DNA from: Craspedostauros australis
Lineage: Eukaryota
Direction: 5' to 3'
Assembly (NCBI GenBank): GCA_030167865.1
Contig: JALAGF010004261.1
Span: forward strand, 1 to 39,182
Length of the DNA: 39,182 bases
Every line of letters begins with the position of its first letter. The stretch's first letter is position 1. The translations under genes and the position numbers were made by a program. Below are positions 7,830 through 34,986 of this stretch, piece by piece. The notes under the pieces are model-generated. The model had not been told where the DNA came from. It did no database searches and saw only the letters and a list, made by a program, of their open reading frames with translations.

Positions 7830-9180
7830 TGGAGAGAGGGAACAAGCCCTTGCCGCACACATGCATTCCCACGAACCTCCTCTTCCACCCATACTGATGA
7901 TTAGATGTATGATAGCAGAGCCGGGCGCTCTCGTTGCTGCTCGCACCAGTGTTGCGGTTCCACATCTTCGAAACGAAAACGTGGACGCGGACAGCCACAG
8001 AGTCACACGCAGCGAGACGCGCAGATCGGAATGATGTTGCCACGGGCAAGCAGAAGAATCACAACAGTCACAACCAGCACCACAACTCACGCCACCCTTC
8101 ACCTTCAACAGCAACAGCAACGTCACCGCCGCAAGTGAAGAAGGTGTGAAGAAAGTGATGAGATGTTGCAGTTGCGAACGTGGCCAACGTCGCAGCGCAT
8201 CGAGTCGCTCATTTTCTCGCTGCCTGTTTCGCTTGATGTTGTTTTCATTGATACGCCTCCGCGAATCTCCAAACGCGAACGACGAGTACCGCGGAAAAGA
8301 AGGAGGAGTTGAACCAACAGACATCGCCATGAATTCGAACATTCGTTCGCCATGTCCGTTGCGTTGGACGTTTGATAATTGTGGTTGTTCCCGTCCAAAC
8401 GTGTACCGTGGAAGCCAAAAAGAGCTCGATTAGTTTCTTTATGACATGATCGATTCGCGAGGTCGATAGAGGAGCTCGTGTTCATTCTTTGGCGATGACA
8501 CAAATCCGTGATTGAAGAATGAGCATACCCGGGATTGAATGGGAATTGTGTCTGACTGAAGTGACATCCCAGTCACGACCCAATCACGCAGAGAGGCGAG
8601 ACACGAACTGCGCGACCAAATTCAACGGTTGCGATCGCTGCCATTCGCGTGGGGTGCGTGATCTGTCAAGGCATGACGTGATGTGACCAAAGAAACAACA
8701 TGGAAGAAGGTGCTGTGCGAACAACGAGAATGGGAACGAGAACAGAATCCAGCGATTTCAATCAAAGCACGACACCAAGAACAGAGATTCTTGCGCATGT
8801 AACCTTCTTGCTTGGGACACACGAAGGGGCTCACATCATACTCGCACCCCTCTCTTGGAAGATATCACACGACTACTCTCCACCTTATCGCAGTGCTCTT
8901 CGTGTTGGTACCAATACGATCCCCTCCACTCTCTCGTATCTTGGATGACACAGGAAGCGAGGAGCTGTTTCGACTTCATTTGAGGTCTTGATCGCGGAGG
9001 CGCTGAAGCAAGAACCAACCGCACGACCCAAAGAAGCACCAACAGAAGGTTTGAGAAAGTCAATTGCATCAATTGCACCAATCACATCCTTTGTGCCCAT
9101 CGCACCCCACCCATCGTTCTCATCGTTCTCATTGCAATCAACTCCATGAACGAAAAGGAGAGTGGTGAAGTGAGGACCTC

Positions 9181-12100
9181 ATGAAACTCTCATTCCTGTC
9201 GCGATTGCGTCCGCACAAACGATCTGCCAAGCAACAGCAGCAACAACAACAGGAAGAACATCAGGATCAGCTGGGAGCACCTCAAGCAACGTACGAAGGA
9301 GTCGAACGAAGAGGACGATCTCCGCGCAAGCCGACCACAAGCAGCAAAGAAGGCAAACAGGACAAAGAGCAATCGCTGCAAGCTCCGACAGACAGCGAGA
9401 CTCAGAGCAGCGGCAAGTCCAGAAGCAAGAGTCTCACCAGAACGAGGAGCAAAAGCAGGAGCAAAGGAAGCGGCAGCGGCAGAATCAAAAGGAGGGGTGA
9501 CCTTGGAAGCAGCGACCACGTCAGTTCGAGCACCAGAACCAGGAGGAGGAGTAAAAGCAAAGGCAGAGTCCGTCGCAACAGCAACAGCAACAGCAACGGC
9601 AACGACAACAACGCTGCCAGCAATACAGGCAACGGCAATACAAGCAAGGGAAGCACAAGGAGAAAGGCCAAGAGCAAGTCTGCTGACTTCGATTCCATCA
9701 GAACGGCTCCAGCGCGGATGGCATCGGAACCCGTGTTGAATACCATTGCTACTCCCCTTCTTGACAACTCCAGAAGGAGCGACGGAAGCTACCTCGACAG
9801 TCAAAGCAACCACACCACCAGCAGTGCCGCCAGCGACACAGGCAACAACGGCAACGGCGGCAAGCCAAAGAACAAGAAAAATAAGAAGCGAAACTCCAAG
9901 AGGAAGCAGAAACGTGCCCTCGAACGCAGAGCTGCCGCGGAGCGAAACCTACAATTGCAAATGTTGAACCGAGGCAACCGTTCCTTCGTCGCGGACGACG
10001 GCGATGACATGCCGACAGACCCGCTGCAGGGTGCCAAGATATACGTCCTCCCGGTCTACAGCGAACAGGACCTTGCCGGCAGCACCCACACCAACAACCT
10101 GAATTCGGAGATTGTGGAGATCGACAACGCCGCGGATCACATCGAGGTGTCCTACATCGAGAAGCTATCGCATGACAAGGTGGGGCATGATGTCGCGTCC
10201 TTCATCTCCTCGCTTGGCGGATCCGTCGCCAATTCATTGAACGACGCCACGCACGCCGTGTGGCCACCGCCCGTCACCAATGATCCGACGGTCCGCAACA
10301 CCTACTCCTCGCTGCACCTTCAAACGACCTGGGCGCAGGCCGAATCGAATCAGGTTCCGATCCTCGATGCCGGCACGTGGTTGGAAGCCGTGGCGTGTCT
10401 GCGTGTTGGACAGCATTGGTCGGAGATCGATGTGTCGAAGCATGTTCCGGCCGTCTTTCGCACCTTCATGCCACCACCGCCGACAACAACAACAACAACA
10501 CATGCGGCATCGTCTCTCAATATGCAACGATCGTCCTTCGCGGAGTCTGCCATGTCTGCCGCGATCTCTCCCATGCCAGTGTCCATGCCGATGGAACCTA
10601 CTGCTGTCTACGAACAAGGGCACAAGCAGGCGCGTCTTCCGACCTCCCTATTCGGCATCGGACTTCCATCCAACAACAATAATCACACCAACAACAGCAA
10701 CAAACGCAATGCCAGCAGCCGCAATAATGCCAGCAACCGCAACAATGCTGGCGGCGACCAACAGCCGAGGAGATGGTTCCAAGGCTGGCAAAAACCACGC
10801 ATGAAGCATCGCAGGGACAACAACGAGGCGGAGCAGATGCAGATGAATCACTCCATCAACCAGACCTTCTCCTACCTTGCCCAATCCCATCCGGAGCAGT
10901 GCGAAGAGGAGGCCTTGAAACGGGCCATGGAGCTGTCGCTGTTGGATTGTGCGTTGGTGGTGCGACGTCCCGGTTCTACCCAAGCTCCGTGGATGTCCGG
11001 TTCCGCATCGAGGCAGTCTGCCACTCACAATGCCAGCACCGGCTCAAGGTATCCAGCGGCATCGGCACCAGGAAAGTCCAACACAGGGGCCAACGGCCGA
11101 ACTGGAAAGTCGCCTCAGGAGATCTTGGGTCTGCCCACGAAATCCCACACCTTCCCCACGTTGGAGGAATGCAAGGCAGCGTACCGCAAGCTGGCGCGCG
11201 TGCACCATCCCGACAAGGGTGGGTCAGCAGACACATTCTTCAACATCGCCAAGGCCTACCGCACGTTGCTTGCCCAGATTGCGGAACAGGCCGAGGCCGC
11301 ATCCGCCACCAGCAAGTCCAACGGCAACAGCAACTGGAACGATCCGGCCACCATGCCGGACAAGCTCGCGCTCAAGAGCACGTCCCATTGGGATTCGGAG
11401 CTGCAGGATCATCGCAGGCTCGTGGAGGAGCTCTTCACCAGCCACGGCACCAACCTCAACGACACGCTCGACACGCAGGGCGACATCCTGCACAACGTCC
11501 TGTACCTCATGGCCTACGATGCCGGATCTACAAACCACAACGAAGAAGAGGAGCTCATCCACAACTCCTGCTTCTACCTCTCCCTCGCCGCCAGCTACCT
11601 CCATGGCATCGGCGCCCTCCTCGCAGATGGTAGCGCAAGTGCCAAGGACTCTCCCGATGAATTGCGCACGGCCTACACTGCGGACACGCACGATGGCTCG
11701 CTGTCCGACGCCTCCGGCGCGCCACCCAAATTCGATGACGAGGATCTGTACCTCATTCGTGCGACGGCGTTGCAGCTGAAGCGCGTCATCGAAGCCGCTG
11801 TCGTGCGAGCGCATCCCGAATGGGCGGCCGCCGGCAAGGTCGGCGAGGAGGTGCAGGCCTTTTCCGACTTCCTCGTCTACCTCCTGGATTCGCCCGATAC
11901 GCTGCTCAGCGATTGGGCCGTCGTCGTCTTTGATACGGTGTCCGGCATTTGCGACGTCTACCAAGGCAAGTTCTTCAAGGAGCAGTCGCCGGAGTGGCAG
12001 TCCACCAACACCATCACCATCCAGTATTTGCCGGGGCACTACCAACCCCTGGTGCCAATGTCAAGAAGCATCGATGGTCGCCCAGGTAGTGCCGAACAGC

Positions 12101-12183
12101 AAAGCAGACCGATGCTGTCGGAAGTGCTCAAGGCTCTGGATGAGAAGGGTGCCTACTACGTCGTGACGGATGGCGCGGGGTAG
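9181..12183 (+). CDS. 1000-aa multidomain protein: basic low-complexity N-terminus, BRCT-like region, UIM, J-domain (HPD), C-terminal OTU-like cysteine protease domain
   Basis: Single uninterrupted ORF with GC3-rich codons. J-domain: PQEILGL...EECKAAYRKLARVHHPDKGGSADTFFNIAKAYRTL (11110-11271). UIM: EEEALKRAMELSL (10903-10941). BRCT-like: ISSLGGSV...ATHAV...PILDAGTWLEAV. OTU-like: NSCFYLSL (Cys 11569) and IQYLPGHYQPL (His 12037). Confidence 0.9.
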   Translation: MKLSFLSRLRPHKRSAKQQQQQQQEEHQDQLGAPQATYEGVERRGRSPRKPTTSSKEGKQDKEQSLQAPTDSETQSSGKSRSKSLTRTRSKSRSKGSGSGRIKRRGDLGSSDHVSSSTRTRRRSKSKGRVRRNSNSNSNGNDNNAASNTGNGNTSKGSTRRKAKSKSADFDSIRTAPARMASEPVLNTIATPLLDNSRRSDGSYLDSQSNHTTSSAASDTGNNGNGGKPKNKKNKKRNSKRKQKRALERRAAAERNLQLQMLNRGNRSFVADDGDDMPTDPLQGAKIYVLPVYSEQDLAGSTHTNNLNSEIVEIDNAADHIEVSYIEKLSHDKVGHDVASFISSLGGSVANSLNDATHAVWPPPVTNDPTVRNTYSSLHLQTTWAQAESNQVPILDAGTWLEAVACLRVGQHWSEIDVSKHVPAVFRTFMPPPPTTTTTTHAASSLNMQRSSFAESAMSAAISPMPVSMPMEPTAVYEQGHKQARLPTSLFGIGLPSNNNNHTNNSNKRNASSRNNASNRNNAGGDQQPRRWFQGWQKPRMKHRRDNNEAEQMQMNHSINQTFSYLAQSHPEQCEEEALKRAMELSLLDCALVVRRPGSTQAPWMSGSASRQSATHNASTGSRYPAASAPGKSNTGANGRTGKSPQEILGLPTKSHTFPTLEECKAAYRKLARVHHPDKGGSADTFFNIAKAYRTLLAQIAEQAEAASATSKSNGNSNWNDPATMPDKLALKSTSHWDSELQDHRRLVEELFTSHGTNLNDTLDTQGDILHNVLYLMAYDAGSTNHNEEEELIHNSCFYLSLAASYLHGIGALLADGSASAKDSPDELRTAYTADTHDGSLSDASGAPPKFDDEDLYLIRATALQLKRVIEAAVVRAHPEWAAAGKVGEEVQAFSDFLVYLLDSPDTLLSDWAVVVFDTVSGICDVYQGKFFKEQSPEWQSTNTITIQYLPGHYQPLVPMSRSIDGRPGSAEQQSRPMLSEVLKALDEKGAYYVVTDGAG

Positions 12184-13478
12184 CGTACATACCACGAACA
12201 GTATGATACAAGCACGTATGCACACGTCGATGCAGTCGAATTCAATGTATTGGCATTGCAATGCAATGTTTGTGAGTGTCGGTATCCGCAGTTAATGGAT
12301 ATAGTCGGGGGGAAGCGACAGAGATTGTCTGGTACCATGTGCTCACTGCATGAACACCAAACAGCGAATAAGTGATAGTGTTGCATGCTCTGTAGTATTA
12401 TACTAGAGTATTCTATGATATTGTAGAATGATAGAGAGTGCCCTGGAGGGTGATGCGCTCTTGATCCCTGTGATGCAATCAAAACAGATTGGAGAGTCAG
12501 AGAGTAGAGCTGGACAGACAGGCTACCCCTGCTCTGTTATCCACGTTTCACGATGCCACGCGCTCATCGCGGACTCGTTTGACACGTCTGGCGACTTCGA
12601 TCACACCAGCGAATCCCGTCACAATGAAGATGGAGAAGTGTGTGGCTGAAACCGGTGGCTGCTGATGTGTCCTCCTCTGTGTTCGCAGCACATCATCGTC
12701 GTCACCGTCGTCACCGTTGCCACCATGTTTGGGATCCACAGACACAAACGCCCAGAACGGCACGAACAAAAGCAAAGACAGCGAACGCAGGAAGACACCC
12801 ATCATCCCCTTCTCGGATCTTCTCTTGGCTTCCTGGTCAACAAGATTCAAACTCGGAGACATCAAGTATGTGCACAACAACCAGCGAGAACATTGCGCGC
12901 GTTCCACGTATGACATTTGGTGACATCAACCATCTCCTCTCCCCTCTTATCCGCTCTTATCCGTCGCCATGGATGACGCTTCAAGACCTGCCTTTCGAAG
13001 CAGCCCCTTGCTGACGACCACAAAGTGCTTGTGCTCAAGTACGAGTGTGAGGTGGGCAGAGCTGCATCATGCGCGCACAAACATCCACTCCATCTGTCCT
13101 GTTCTGTTGACCACGACAGAACAAGACCCGCGCTCAGAGGTATAAAACTATACCACGACTGCGAACTTCAAACCGCAGGATGCTGCTTCTCTATCCTCAC
13201 CCGCACTTCTGATTGCGCCACTTCGGCCTGTCTTGGCCATCGTCTCCACGCAATCATCGTCGCACCCGATCGCTATGCTATCCTCGCTGTCGTGGTTGCA
13301 GCTGTCGATACTATCGGCGACAGTGTTGGCGATCGTGATCGTGATCGAGTTGATGGCTGAGCTCCAGAGCAACTTCCACGATTGACGGCAGCCCTGCTCT
13401 CCACTTGGACTAGCACCACACTCGTACCGTCCCATACCCACGCATACTCGCACTTAGTGACGACTCTCTCGGGCATTG

Positions 13479-14621
13479 ATGAGGCGTGCATCCAACTTGT
13501 TCCCATCGTTGATGCCTGTTGCGCTCATCGCAACATCATCAATACAAGGCAACCCATCGCAAATGCATTCTGTTCTCACAACGGCGCTTCTTGCCTCCTT
13601 TCCACGCAATCCTCATCGGCCACGCCTGCGAAGAGTCCAACGCTTCGGCCATCCTCTACTCTCCAATCTATCGACCAGCATATCCACCATGGCCCTCTTC
13701 TCGTCGCTCTCATCGTCCGCGGCCAATGAAGATGGCAAAAAGCAGAGACCCAAGTCACACAACCGTCTGGTGTACGGGAAGGACGACATTCTATTCGGCA
13801 GCATCGAGGAACGGCAGGGCGATCGTCCGTTCGGGCGCGTCCTGGATGCCGGCACGGGCATGCATTCGTTGCGATGGATCGCGACGTTGAGCGAAACCCT
13901 CGGCATGGAGCACGTCACCTGCATCACGGCGGACGAGACCATGAGGAAGAACGTGCAGCGCGAGGCGGATGATCTGGAGATCACCGATGTCAGCAAGGTC
14001 ATCATCGGCAACTGGTTCGGCCCCGATGGCACGACGTCCATCAACCTGAAACCGGAATCGTTCGATGTCATCCTGGCGGATTATCTGATCGGTGCCATGG
14101 ACGGCTTCTCACCGTACCAGCAGGACCTCATGCTGCCCAAGTTGGTGAGGTATCTCAAGCCTGGCGGTCGTCTGTATATCGTGGGATTGGAACCGCTGCC
14201 GGACAAGGCCCCAGGCGACGCCAACATCATCTGCAAGGTGCGCCAGGTCCGCGACGCTTGCATTCTGCTGGGCGGCCATCGATGCTACCGCGAGTACCCC
14301 ATGCAATGGATGGAGCGCCAGATCGAGCACCGCTCCTCCCACCTCAAGCTCATCCACACGAGCACATTCCCCATCTTGTACAGGCATCAAACCATCGTCA
14401 ATCAGATCAACGTGGGGCGTTCCAAATTCTCGCTCTTTCCAACGAAGGAGTTGGCCGCTTCCATGAAGAAGGTGATGGACGATCTCGAGGCCCAGAGTCT
14501 GGAGGCGACGTCAAGGGCGCCGAATGGGAGAATCCGATTGGGTTTTGATTACGTCATAACGGCGGAGAAGACAGACGATGCAAAGGCAGTCACGATGGAA
14601 GGAGTATGCATCGAGCGCTAG
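13479..14621 (+). CDS. Class I SAM-dependent methyltransferase, possibly organelle-targeted (alternative start ATG 13689)
   Basis: Motif I VLDAGTG, FDVILADYLIGA, and LKPGGRLYIVG. S/T/R-rich N-terminal extension. Confidence 0.88.
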   Translation: MRRASNLFPSLMPVALIATSSIQGNPSQMHSVLTTALLASFPRNPHRPRLRRVQRFGHPLLSNLSTSISTMALFSSLSSSAANEDGKKQRPKSHNRLVYGKDDILFGSIEERQGDRPFGRVLDAGTGMHSLRWIATLSETLGMEHVTCITADETMRKNVQREADDLEITDVSKVIIGNWFGPDGTTSINLKPESFDVILADYLIGAMDGFSPYQQDLMLPKLVRYLKPGGRLYIVGLEPLPDKAPGDANIICKVRQVRDACILLGGHRCYREYPMQWMERQIEHRSSHLKLIHTSTFPILYRHQTIVNQINVGRSKFSLFPTKELAASMKKVMDDLEAQSLEATSRAPNGRIRLGFDYVITAEKTDDAKAVTMEGVCIER

Positions 14622-32434: not shown

Positions 32435-34986
32435 TTACTTGACTTCCAGTTCCAAGACGACAGGGCAATGGTCGCTCCCTTCCTGCTCCGGTAACATGAA
32501 GCTGTCGCGGACGATGACACCGCCATCATCCTCGAGCATGTCGGAGGAGCAGATGAAGTAATCGAGCCGAAGGCCCTTGTTGGGTGCGCGATTTCCCGCG
32601 CGTTGACTCCAGTAGGAGTAGTGCCCCTTCGCGGTGGGATGGAGATGGCGAAAGGCATCCACGAAGCCTGAATCGAGCTGACGCTGGAAGCTTTCACGTT
32701 CCTGGACCGTGACGCCCGCCTGCTTGGCCAAATGCTTGGCACCATCATTCCAAACCTCCAAGTTGGTGTGCGCGACGTTGAGGTCGCCCAGCCACAAGAC
32801 CGGCACGCCTCGATCGGCGTGCTTGGATTGCATGAATTTGAGAAAGTCCACGTCCCAGCCTTCCGTGCGGTAGTCGAGACGCTCGAGCTTCTGGCCACTG
32901 TTTGGTACGTAGACGTTGGCGACGGACATGCACGGGAAGTCCAGCTGGACCATGCGTCCTTCGTTGTCCACTTCTGTCCCAAACTTGTACGTGGTTTGTT
33001 GCGGGATCAGCTTCCGAAGGACTTCGGGCGGTATTCCCTGCGTTCGATGTGACGAGCTACCTGATTTGGCCGACGCCGATGAACCGTGCTTAGTCTTATC
33101 ATCGTCAGGATCTGCGGTGCCCCCCTTGTTCTTGGAAGCTGCTGCTTTGCTCTTGGATTTGGTTGTTGAGAAGAAGCTGCCGATGCTGGTCTGCTTCGCC
33201 TTGGACTTCGCCTTCGTCTTGGCCTTTGTATCTGCCGTTGAGCCTGACGATGATGCAGCTGCTTCGTCAAACTTGCGGACAAACACGGCAGTGCCAGAGT
33301 AGCCCTTCTTCGTGGTGGAGTAGCTGAAATAGGACTCATAATCTGCATCATCTAACAGATGATCGCGGAGCTTGAGTTTGGGATCGTCAAGATGAGTTTC
33401 TTGCAACTTGGTCTCCTGGAGACAGAGCATGTCAAGATCGTGCTTTTGACAGAGATCCTTGATCGCTTCAGGTTTCTTCTTGAGGAGGCCACGGATGCCT
33501 GCCACGTTCCACGATGCGATTCTGTAGGCTGCGAACGAAGGAGGATGAGTGTGTGCAGAATGTATAAGATTGAACGAACGTTGCATGGAGGGAATGGATA
33601 TGCGTGAGTGATCAAGTGATTAAGTTGATGGCATGTACCAACACAAGCACCAACATAAGCACCAATGTAAGTTCTGACACAAGCTTCACTCAAATGACAC
33701 GCAAACGTAGCTGCTGCTGCAGCAGCTGCGGATATGGAAAACTTACTGTAGGACCCCTTCTTCCTTCCATCCTCTTCGTTCCACAGCTTCTGTATTTCAT
33801 CTTGTTCCGTCTGCTGCTGATGACTGGCAGCCTTCTTAGCAGGCTTGGCTTTGGCGACTGTCTTCGCTTCGATCTTGGCTGCTGGCTTCGTCTTCCTGCT
33901 GGCGGTCGCCTTGGACGAATCCGGTTGGCTCTCCTCGTTGTCGTCGCTGGTCACCTGCTTGCGCGGACGACCCCGTCTCTTCTTCTTCGGCGTGGCGTTG
34001 CTGCTGTCATCGCTCGCAGAGGCATCATCCGCAACCTCCACAATCTCAGTCGACTTGGCCGCCTTTCTCTTTGGAGGTCTGCCTCGCTTCTTTGGCTTGG
34101 CAACGACCTCGACCTCATCAACTTCATCAGTTGGTTCAGAAGCAGCCTTCGTCGAGCCTCTCGTTCTTCGTTTGATGGAAGAGACCACGGGCGCATCATC
34201 CCCACTGACCATTTCCTCGTCGCTGCCTTTGACTGCCATGAGTGCCGTACTGGTTGTCGAATACGCCCTGGACTGCCGCTCGAATGCGCAATGCCGCACT
34301 CGTGCTTCTGATCTACCTCTGCCTGCGCGTTCGGTGAAGCTGTTGGCGACGGTCGTGGACAGTGCCGAAACCAAAGGGATTGGAGCGGGCAGCAGAGTGT
34401 TCGTAATCGTGTTTGCACGAGCGAGTGTTGCTGATAGCCGTTCCAGTCTTCTTCCCGAATTGCCTGCGTTTGAAGCAGTGTCTCTCAGAGCCAGAGTGCC
34501 AGTCTCCGAAATGAAACCGATGTTCGACGGAGCGAGGAAGCTGAGCGATCGCAGGTTGCAATGCGCTGATCTGGCAACTGCTGCTGCACGACTTGCGAGG
34601 GAGATGGAAGTTGGAACAGCCGCGGTCACAGCAGACAGCATGTGGATGGTCTGATTGCAGTCGGCGGAAGCTCCAGTGATCGTATAACTGACAACAGCAG
34701 CAGCAACAACAAGAGCAATGATGGTCAAGACAGCGATGGTCAAATAAATGGCGATCCCTGTTCGTTGCCGAATTCGTGCCTTCTGGTGAACGTTGCTGTT
34801 GATTGTCCTGCTCCTTCCACTCCTACTTGTACTTGTAGTTCTGCTCGTACTTGTACTTGTACGTGTAACACAAGTATGAGCCTTGTGAGCTTGTCGATCG
34901 CAGCAACGAGGATCTCCGGTCAGCTCCTTCCTCATTGCTCTTGTGTGAGACGAGCAAATCAGAGCGACTCGTGCGCAAGATGACAC
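32435..34986 (-). CDS. ExoIII/APE1-family AP endonuclease with long N-terminal extension; exons (start 34986 or downstream)-33747 and 33528-32435
   Basis: IASWNVAG, LCLQETK, KKGYSGTA, EGR, NVYVPNSG, LGDLNVAH, GFVDAFR, YSYWSQR, GLRLDY, GSDHCP. Phase-1 intron 33746-33529 (GTAAGT...CAG) gives KGSYTYRIASWN. Start codon uncertain. Confidence 0.93.

Follow-up and report, generated by a model that had tools for sequence, protein, structure and literature searches.

We analysed a stretch of 39,182 nucleotides from the diatom Craspedostauros australis (GenBank assembly GCA_030167865.1, contig JALAGF010004261.1, positions 1 to 39,182 of the forward strand), hereafter called the window, and more specifically a long open reading frame (ORF) located at positions 9181..12183. 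An initial annotation had described this ORF as a BRCT-UIM-J-domain-OTU fusion, i.e. an Hsp70 co-chaperone joined to a putative deubiquitinase. We assessed the coding potential of the frame, the identity of its modules, their conservation among homologs and the predicted fold of the C-terminal domain. The proposed domain order held, the J-domain was firmly identified and nothing contradicted the fusion; the OTU, BRCT and UIM assignments stayed below their cut-offs in the window protein itself. The architecture is real, conserved and unannotated.

The frame runs uninterrupted from an ATG over 1000 amino acids (aa) to a stop codon, and an in-frame stop lies 4 codons 5' of the ATG. To score coding potential, the ORF was cut into five segments and read in six frames by a codon model that had been trained on four long ORFs elsewhere in the window. 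Frame 0 gave the top score in 5/5 segments. For aa 1-276 this score was 0.067 (still the best of the six frames) vs 0.16-0.43 in the other four segments, and G+C content at third codon positions was 0.64 vs 0.68-0.79 in the rest of the ORF. Met codons occur at aa 1, 180, 261 and 277, and the N-termini of homologs in the alignment lie 2 to ~160 aa ahead of the BRCT-like region. On the basis of these homolog N-termini and internal Met codons, aa 277-1000 were considered as the conserved core and 1000 aa as an upper bound, the true start codon and the full length being uncertain. The gene is also overlapped by long ORFs on the antisense strand and in other frames; their coding scores are lower than that of frame 0, and they were taken as by-products of composition. 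Among them, an opposite-strand ORF of 207 aa (9190-9813) over the N-terminal stretch looks like a composition artefact. The AT skew is very high (0.49) at positions 9001-10000, coinciding with the A-rich S, K, N, Q and R codons of the N-terminal extension.

The J-domain was recognized by Pfam DnaJ (PF00226) over aa 647-696, above the cut-off (E 4.2e-07, 30.4 bits vs a gathering score of 27.8). Its HPD tripeptide (aa 676-678, codons CAT CCC GAC) lies at nucleotides 11206-11214, exactly where an intact motif had been reported, and is flanked by two helices in the structural model (aa 661-675 and 683-712). Foldseek superposed this region on solved J-domains with a probability of 1.00 and a root-mean-square deviation (rmsd) of 1.2-2.5 Å over 54-70 columns, e.g. 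2lo1 (1.6 Å, 57 columns) and 6jmg (2.4 Å, 70 columns); the accompanying E-values (0.017-0.25) reflect a query that also held the C-terminal domain. With this combined query J-domains dominated the matches, the first OTU ranking 27th. The same domain order was found in 65 full-length homologs (hereafter full-length members); DnaJ was found in 65/65 of them, with H676 and D678 of the HPD invariant, and in the window protein's own clade the HPD is kept in 56/57 orthologs. The identity of the J-domain is firm, and it would be expected to stimulate Hsp70 ATPase activity.

No Pfam family matched the C-terminal domain (aa 732-1000), in which NSCFYLSL starts at aa 795 and IQYLPGHYQPL at aa 947, Cys797 and His953 being 156 codons apart, so that both motifs and their spacing were recovered as originally described. 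Conservation was counted on 234 stored family sequences aligned to a hidden Markov model of the domain, with non-gap sequences only considered at each position. Cys797 is Cys in 207/207 sequences and His953 is His in 191/191, i.e. the pair on which the deubiquitinase proposal relied is fully conserved in homologs; Asn795 is likewise Asn in 208/208. The residue following the His is aromatic (Tyr in 184 and Phe in 7 of 191), and position 955 is Gln in 162 sequences, Glu in 11, Lys in 7, Arg in 5 and another residue in 4. Further conserved positions are Asp896 (211/215), Asp918 (196/210) and position 878 (His in 198, Arg in 19 and Asn in 5, i.e. Arg or Asn in 24 of 222). Upstream of Cys797, E788 and N795 are invariant in the full-length members. 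A search of PDB sequences with aa 721-1000 alone returned one low-complexity match (E 0.11) and was uninformative.

An AlphaFold2 model of aa 732-1000, built from a 98-row alignment, reached a mean predicted local distance difference test (pLDDT) of 80.8 and a predicted template modelling score of 0.81. Low confidence was confined to model residues 1-5, 89-92 and 99-114, including an insertion at about aa 820-850. Cys797 (model residue 66) is the first residue of a helix (66-78, pLDDT blocks 90-93) and His953 (model residue 222) the first of a strand (222-228). This predicted placement, with the Cys at a helix N-terminus and the His at the start of a strand, is the classical arrangement of papain-like proteases. 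When the domain alone was compared with the PDB using Foldseek, 31 of the 32 matches listed were OTU-type deubiquitinases or generic 'ubiquitin protease/deubiquitinase' entries, the sole exception being a spliceosome chain. They included SnOTU (8cmr), OTUB1 (4ddg, 2zfy and 4i6l), 3von, OTUD3, rice OTUB (6k9n and 6k9p), A20 and yeast Otu1, together with TRABID, OTUD2, OTUB2, DUBA (3tmp), nairovirus OTUs, a Wolbachia OTU and LotA. Identity to these PDB OTUs was 8-18%; according to Schubert et al. 2020 (PMC7396840), bona fide OTUs share only ~15% identity outside their active-site motifs. The same study gives the usual OTU threading as C...H-aromatic-D/N/E, with which the C...H-aromatic order of the window domain agrees.

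Among predicted viral structures (BFVD), 8 of the 50 matches listed were named OTU domain-containing, ovarian tumor protease or ubiquitinyl hydrolase. The best structural matches were two giant-virus proteins, Moumouvirus goulette M1PBJ4 (E 9.7e-04, probability 1.00, template modelling (TM) score 0.38/0.41) and Mimivirus LCMiAC01 A0A481YZR9 (E 3.5e-03, probability 0.99), with 231-247 aligned columns and 11% identity; both are predicted structures of uncharacterised proteins, and differ from the window protein in that no J-domain is reported for them.

A sequence link to otubains was obtained with two family profiles, built from members mostly devoid of a J-domain and run against PDB sequences. 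Each returned 6 matches at E<=10, of which 4 were otubains, with the C. elegans otubain at E 0.28 then 0.14 and rice OTUB at 1.9 then 0.27. The alignments fall on the strand carrying the catalytic His (LLYRPGHYDVIY vs LLWYvPGHYqalv). In addition, Pfam Peptidase_C65 gave a sub-threshold match in the relative P0143 (E 0.0094, 15.9 bits vs 24.3, profile positions 181-242 of 243) and in two more member scans (E 0.054 and E 0.0069); as the set with the latter match has four proteins in common with the set containing P0143, these three scans need not represent three proteins. Since the OTU family recurs as the predicted one in three independent kinds of search, since the invariant Cys and His sit in the right structural places and since UIMs are repeatedly found alongside, the C-terminal domain probably belongs to the OTU superfamily, as an otubain-like member.

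Upstream of the J-domain, a UIM-like motif had been noticed about 55 aa away; the motif indeed ends ~55 aa before the start of the Pfam DnaJ match (aa 647), and its residues are conserved. UIMs follow a consensus made of an acidic run and then hydrophobic-x-x-Ala-x-x-x-Ser-x-x-acidic, which the window motif fits (E575, E576 and E577, then L579, A582, S586 and D589). In the full-length members, P571, S586, L588, D589 and A591 are invariant around the motif and E575, R581, A582 and E584 are conserved in at least 90%, and Pfam UIM was detected at E<=0.1 in 8/65 of them (best E 0.0063). For the BRCT module, the assignment is supported only via homologs, i.e. window aa 277-425 align with regions that score above the Pfam BRCT cut-off in the relatives P0117 and P0152 (24.2 bits vs 21.3), and Pfam BRCT was found at E<=0.1 in 15/65 full-length members. 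The window protein carries a ~40-aa insertion after the first strand of this BRCT-like region. A feature search of the ESM Atlas gave a BRCT cluster at 0.91, 8 of the 10 best named clusters belonging to the BRCT family or clan, and was retained as a lead only. The PDB sequence search with aa 261-500 alone yielded ten ATP-synthase matches (E>=0.39) and was uninformative. Farther upstream, a basic stretch of the low-complexity extension (aa 228-245) looks like a possible nuclear-localisation signal.

With aa 700-1000 as query, a homolog search restricted to proteins of 550-1750 aa retrieved 97 matches at E<=0.01 (32-57% identity), nearly all carrying PF00226. The best match to the window ORF reached 57% in the C-terminal region and none was near 100% among proteins of this size; either the collection lacks the source organism's own copy, or it contains that copy under a gene model that differs strongly. 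With aa 725-1000 as query against 1.84 billion cluster representatives, 181 were found at E<=0.001, 131 at E<=1e-10 and 66 at E<=1e-30, i.e. a small family at this scale. A profile of 36 shorter members detected 287 proteins at E<=0.001 among those of 90-721 aa, of which the best 120 were considered for their names. Named diatom relatives among the matches listed were both centric and pennate (Thalassiosira, Skeletonema, Cyclotella, Cyclostephanos, Ditylum, Cylindrotheca, Nitzschia, Seminavis and a Bacillariaceae metagenome-assembled genome), and one haptophyte, Prymnesium parvum, was present. The relatives are labelled 'J domain-containing protein', 'DnaJ protein', 'DnaJ-domain-containing protein 1', 'expressed unknown protein' or 'hypothetical protein'. 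Several correspond to complete MMETSP transcripts with the J-domain and the C-terminal domain in one ORF, indicating that the fused form is expressed in relatives.

The association of the two domains varies within the family. A second clade (P0059-P0098, n=40, Thalassiosirales), which includes a second Thalassiosira profunda protein, retains the Cys in 40/40 and the His in 39/39 non-gap sequences; the HPD is present at the aligned column in 0/40 and DnaJ scores are mostly sub-threshold. The alignment of this J region may be imprecise, as P0077 has an HPD inside its J-domain. Among more distant representatives, DnaJ was detected at E<=0.01 in 37/118, and forms of the Cys/His domain devoid of a J-domain were identified (P0125, P0137, P0160, P0171, P0189 and P0206). 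In J-less relatives the Cys/His domain is preceded by other modules, among them C2 and PDZ, both above the Pfam cut-off, and PB1 and FYVE, both below it; in some (e.g. P0171 and P0206) a UIM-like motif, or a pair of them, lies directly upstream. Given these varied partners, the Cys/His domain seems to be the constant element of the family and the J-domain dispensable, and the UIM is the most frequent ubiquitin-related companion of the Cys/His domain.

The other ORFs identified in the window are listed in Table 1 with the features of the fusion gene. They have no evident functional link to the J-OTU-like gene, as expected on a eukaryotic chromosome. The GH2 ORF displays the full GH2 domain set preceded by ~250 extra N-terminal residues. 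The actin-family ORF is longer than a normal actin and, judging from this length, probably encodes an actin-related protein with insertions.

Table 1. Features of the fusion gene and other ORFs of the window
Feature	Position (nt)	Strand	Basis or remark
Whole ORF	9181..12183	+	1000 aa + stop; conserved core aa 277-1000
Low-complexity S/R/K/N-rich extension, aa 1-276	9181..10008	+	S 16%, R 13%, K 10%; translation uncertain
Basic stretch KPKNKKNKKRNSKRKQKR, aa 228-245	9862..9915	+	Sequence
BRCT-like region, aa 277-425	10009..10455	+	Alignment with homolog BRCT regions
UIM-like motif EEEALKRAMELSLLD, aa 575-589	10903..10947	+	Pfam UIM sub-threshold; conservation in 65 members
J-domain, aa 643-712	11107..11316	+	Pfam DnaJ, model helices, Foldseek
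OTU-like cysteine-protease domain, aa 732-1000	11374..12180	+	AlphaFold2 model, Foldseek, family profiles
Cys797 codon TGC, putative nucleophile	11569..11571	+	Cys in 207/207 non-gap; helix N-terminus in model
His953 codon CAC, putative general base	12037..12039	+	His in 191/191 non-gap; strand start; followed by Tyr954, Gln955
Methyltransferase-like ORF	13476-14621	+	Just above Pfam cut-off
GH2 beta-galactosidase-like ORF, 1410 aa	25383-29615	+	Glyco_hydro_2_C E 6.4e-87, Bgal_small_N E 8.7e-54
Actin-family ORF, 631 aa	30280-32175	+	Pfam Actin E 7.4e-59, two stretches
Endonuclease/exonuclease/phosphatase-family ORF	32435-33586	-	Pfam
Ankyrin-repeat protein, 535 aa	36006-37613	+	Pfam

Taken together, the product of the ORF is probably a modular quality-control protein of the nucleus or cytosol, composed of a basic low-complexity tail, a BRCT-like region, a UIM, an HPD J-domain and a divergent OTU domain closest to otubains. 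To judge from its sequence relatives, this protein is conserved in diatoms and occurs in at least one haptophyte. The DnaJ score and the invariance of Cys797, His953 and Asn795 show that the features noticed are more than chance.

Several observations weigh against this interpretation. Pfam OTU (PF02338) and Peptidase_C65 (PF10275) gave no match at E<=10 in the window protein or in its C-terminal domain alone, and no OTU-related score was significant by itself or reached a family threshold, so that formal OTU membership is not established. The PDB matches obtained with Foldseek had E-values of 0.068-0.63 (0 at E<=0.001), TM-scores of 0.12-0.42 and an rmsd often above 10 Å. In the profile searches an unrelated ATP-synthase subunit lacking the His scored as well as the otubains, so the profile E-values carry no weight alone. 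The ESM Atlas search with aa 725-1000 gave a best score of 0.81, a value reached by shuffled proteins a third of the time, and its 19%-OTU cluster at rank 9 was too weak to count. In the active site, the Cys motif N-[S/Q]-C-F-Y differs from the D-G-N-C of OTUs, and the residue two positions after the His is Gln, outside the canonical Asp/Asn/Glu, so that the triad reads C...H-Y-Q; Gln955 is an amide but not D/N/E, and E788 or N795 could stand in as a third residue located before the Cys, as in A20. The other modules are affected as well, Pfam UIM (PF02809) reaching E 0.3 and 11.4 bits in the window protein, under the cut-off of 21 (a motif this short does not give strong scores), and Pfam BRCT (PF00533) giving no match there even at E<=10. 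Overall, the initial interpretation was partly supported. Lastly, the source name of P0091, a Cyclostephanos tholiformis paralog in which Pfam gives just a weak DnaJ at E<=1, begins with 'Ubiquitin-like protease'. A clan CE (Ulp1/SENP) identity suggested by this name was rejected: the sole invariant Cys (797) is N-terminal to all conserved His and Asp, P0091 has no Pfam C48 match at E<=1 and no CE-clan structure is present among the Foldseek matches listed.

Other explanations of the C-terminal domain were weighed. An OTU-like fold acting on something other than ubiquitin isopeptide bonds, i.e. on NEDD8, SUMO or some further ubiquitin-like modifier, or in a mainly non-catalytic role, would accommodate the Gln at His+2, the name of P0091 and the best sequence resemblance, which is to otubains (OTUB1 inhibits E2 enzymes non-catalytically). 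We nevertheless consider it unlikely, as the strictly invariant Cys and His argue for catalysis and UIMs, which bind ubiquitin, repeatedly co-occur with the domain. The domain might also be a papain-like Cys/His enzyme of another chemistry (a peptidase, a deamidase or an acyl-/transglutaminase-type enzyme) whose OTU matches reflect a shared clan CA core; the low TM-scores, the lack of a significant Foldseek match or Pfam family and the conserved H878, D896 and D918, to which no role is assigned, fit this idea. USP, UCH, Josephin, papain and NlpC/P60 structures are however not among the 32 PDB matches listed, which OTUs nearly fill, and the H-Tyr strand motif aligns with otubains, making such an enzyme rather improbable.

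A non-enzymatic domain, in which the conserved Cys, His and Asp would bind a metal or stabilise a binding module, has potential ligands in C797, H878, D896, D918 and H953, and appears very improbable: H878 is not invariant, being replaced by Arg or Asn as described above, which led us to rank a metal site low, and the Cys and His occupy the positions of a classical protease in the model. As for the 1000-aa fusion being a gene-model artefact (two genes read as one, or a chance open frame), the weak coding signal in aa 1-276 speaks for it, as do the overlapping long ORFs in antisense and in other frames. We give hardly any credence to it, since a single unbroken frame, with the best coding score in every segment, contains all of the BRCT-like, UIM, J and C-terminal domains, and their order recurs in the full-length homologs, complete transcripts among them.

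Compared with known systems, the C-terminal domain is most reminiscent of otubains (OTUB1/OTUB2, Peptidase_C65), with which it shares the Cys...His-aromatic order, the Cys at a helix N-terminus and a similar size (~230-270 aa); its PGHY strand aligns with the C. elegans and rice otubains, and OTUB1, OTUB2 and rice OTUB are among its top Foldseek matches. It differs from them by its Gln at His+2 (Asp or Asn in otubains), its N-[S/Q]-C-F-Y motif, the lack of a score at the family threshold, a low-confidence insertion of ~30 residues after the Cys helix and its fusion to J, UIM and BRCT-like modules. DNAJB2/HSJ1, composed of a J-domain followed by two UIMs, similarly has a J-domain and UIMs on one polypeptide, tying Hsp70 to ubiquitylated clients. 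It is not known to have a protease or a BRCT domain, and its J to UIM order contrasts with the UIM, J and Cys-protease-like order of the window protein. UIM-bearing deubiquitinases, i.e. ataxin-3 (Josephin and UIMs), OTUD1 and OTUD5/DUBA (OTU and UIM), likewise join a Cys-protease domain with a UIM. Ataxin-3 cooperates with the Hsp70/CHIP triage system; unlike the window protein, none of these enzymes is known to carry a J-domain or BRCT of its own, their coupling to chaperones going through separate proteins.

The initial annotation knew of no J+UIM+OTU protein. Consistent with this, the listings and abstracts returned by full-text literature searches described neither a fusion of a J-domain with any deubiquitinase, OTU or other, nor this diatom protein, and the database names of relatives (DnaJ or hypothetical, barring P0091) did not reveal the fusion. 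In the available text of an otubain review (PMC12808915), a term search gave no occurrence of DnaJ, J-domain or UIM, nor of diatoms or algae. What is new is the combination of a J-domain with an OTU-like domain, together with the BRCT-like module and an unannotated OTU-like clade with Gln at His+2.

The analysis shows which domains are present, how they are ordered and conserved, and which fold the C-terminal one resembles; catalysis, a ubiquitin substrate, Hsp70 stimulation, the localisation and any coupling of these activities are inferred, and can be combined in a working model. The UIM and the protease domain would hold ubiquitin on a modified client, and Cys797, activated by His953, would cut the isopeptide bond of this ubiquitin or ubiquitin-like modifier. 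Docking of the J-domain on ATP-bound Hsp70 would then trigger hydrolysis and let Hsp70 capture that client as well. Where this takes place may be set by the BRCT-like module together with the basic tail, plausibly on phosphorylated or chromatin-bound partners. As a more speculative and distinctly tentative proposal, the family could represent an unrecognised OTU clade (C...H-Y-Q, devoid of a Pfam model) hard-wired to a J-domain in diatoms and haptophytes, in which one polypeptide would both deubiquitylate its substrates and load Hsp70 onto them, the BRCT-like region and tail targeting it to phosphorylated nuclear or chromatin-bound substrates.

Hsp70 co-chaperones and deubiquitinases jointly decide between refolding and degradation of damaged proteins; to our knowledge, separate proteins carry the two activities wherever this has been studied, e.g. 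DNAJB2, CHIP and ataxin-3. From a natural fusion that is conserved, it would follow that the deubiquitination and Hsp70 steps can be obligatorily coupled, and such a protein would offer a single-protein handle on the ordering of deubiquitination vs Hsp70 loading. The domain family itself (181 representatives) is unannotated in current family libraries. The proteostasis machinery of diatoms, which are ecologically dominant algae, has been little studied; if the proposed reading is true, these algae would possess a built-in 'rescue' arm of the chaperone-ubiquitin triage, for which other eukaryotes combine several distinct proteins.

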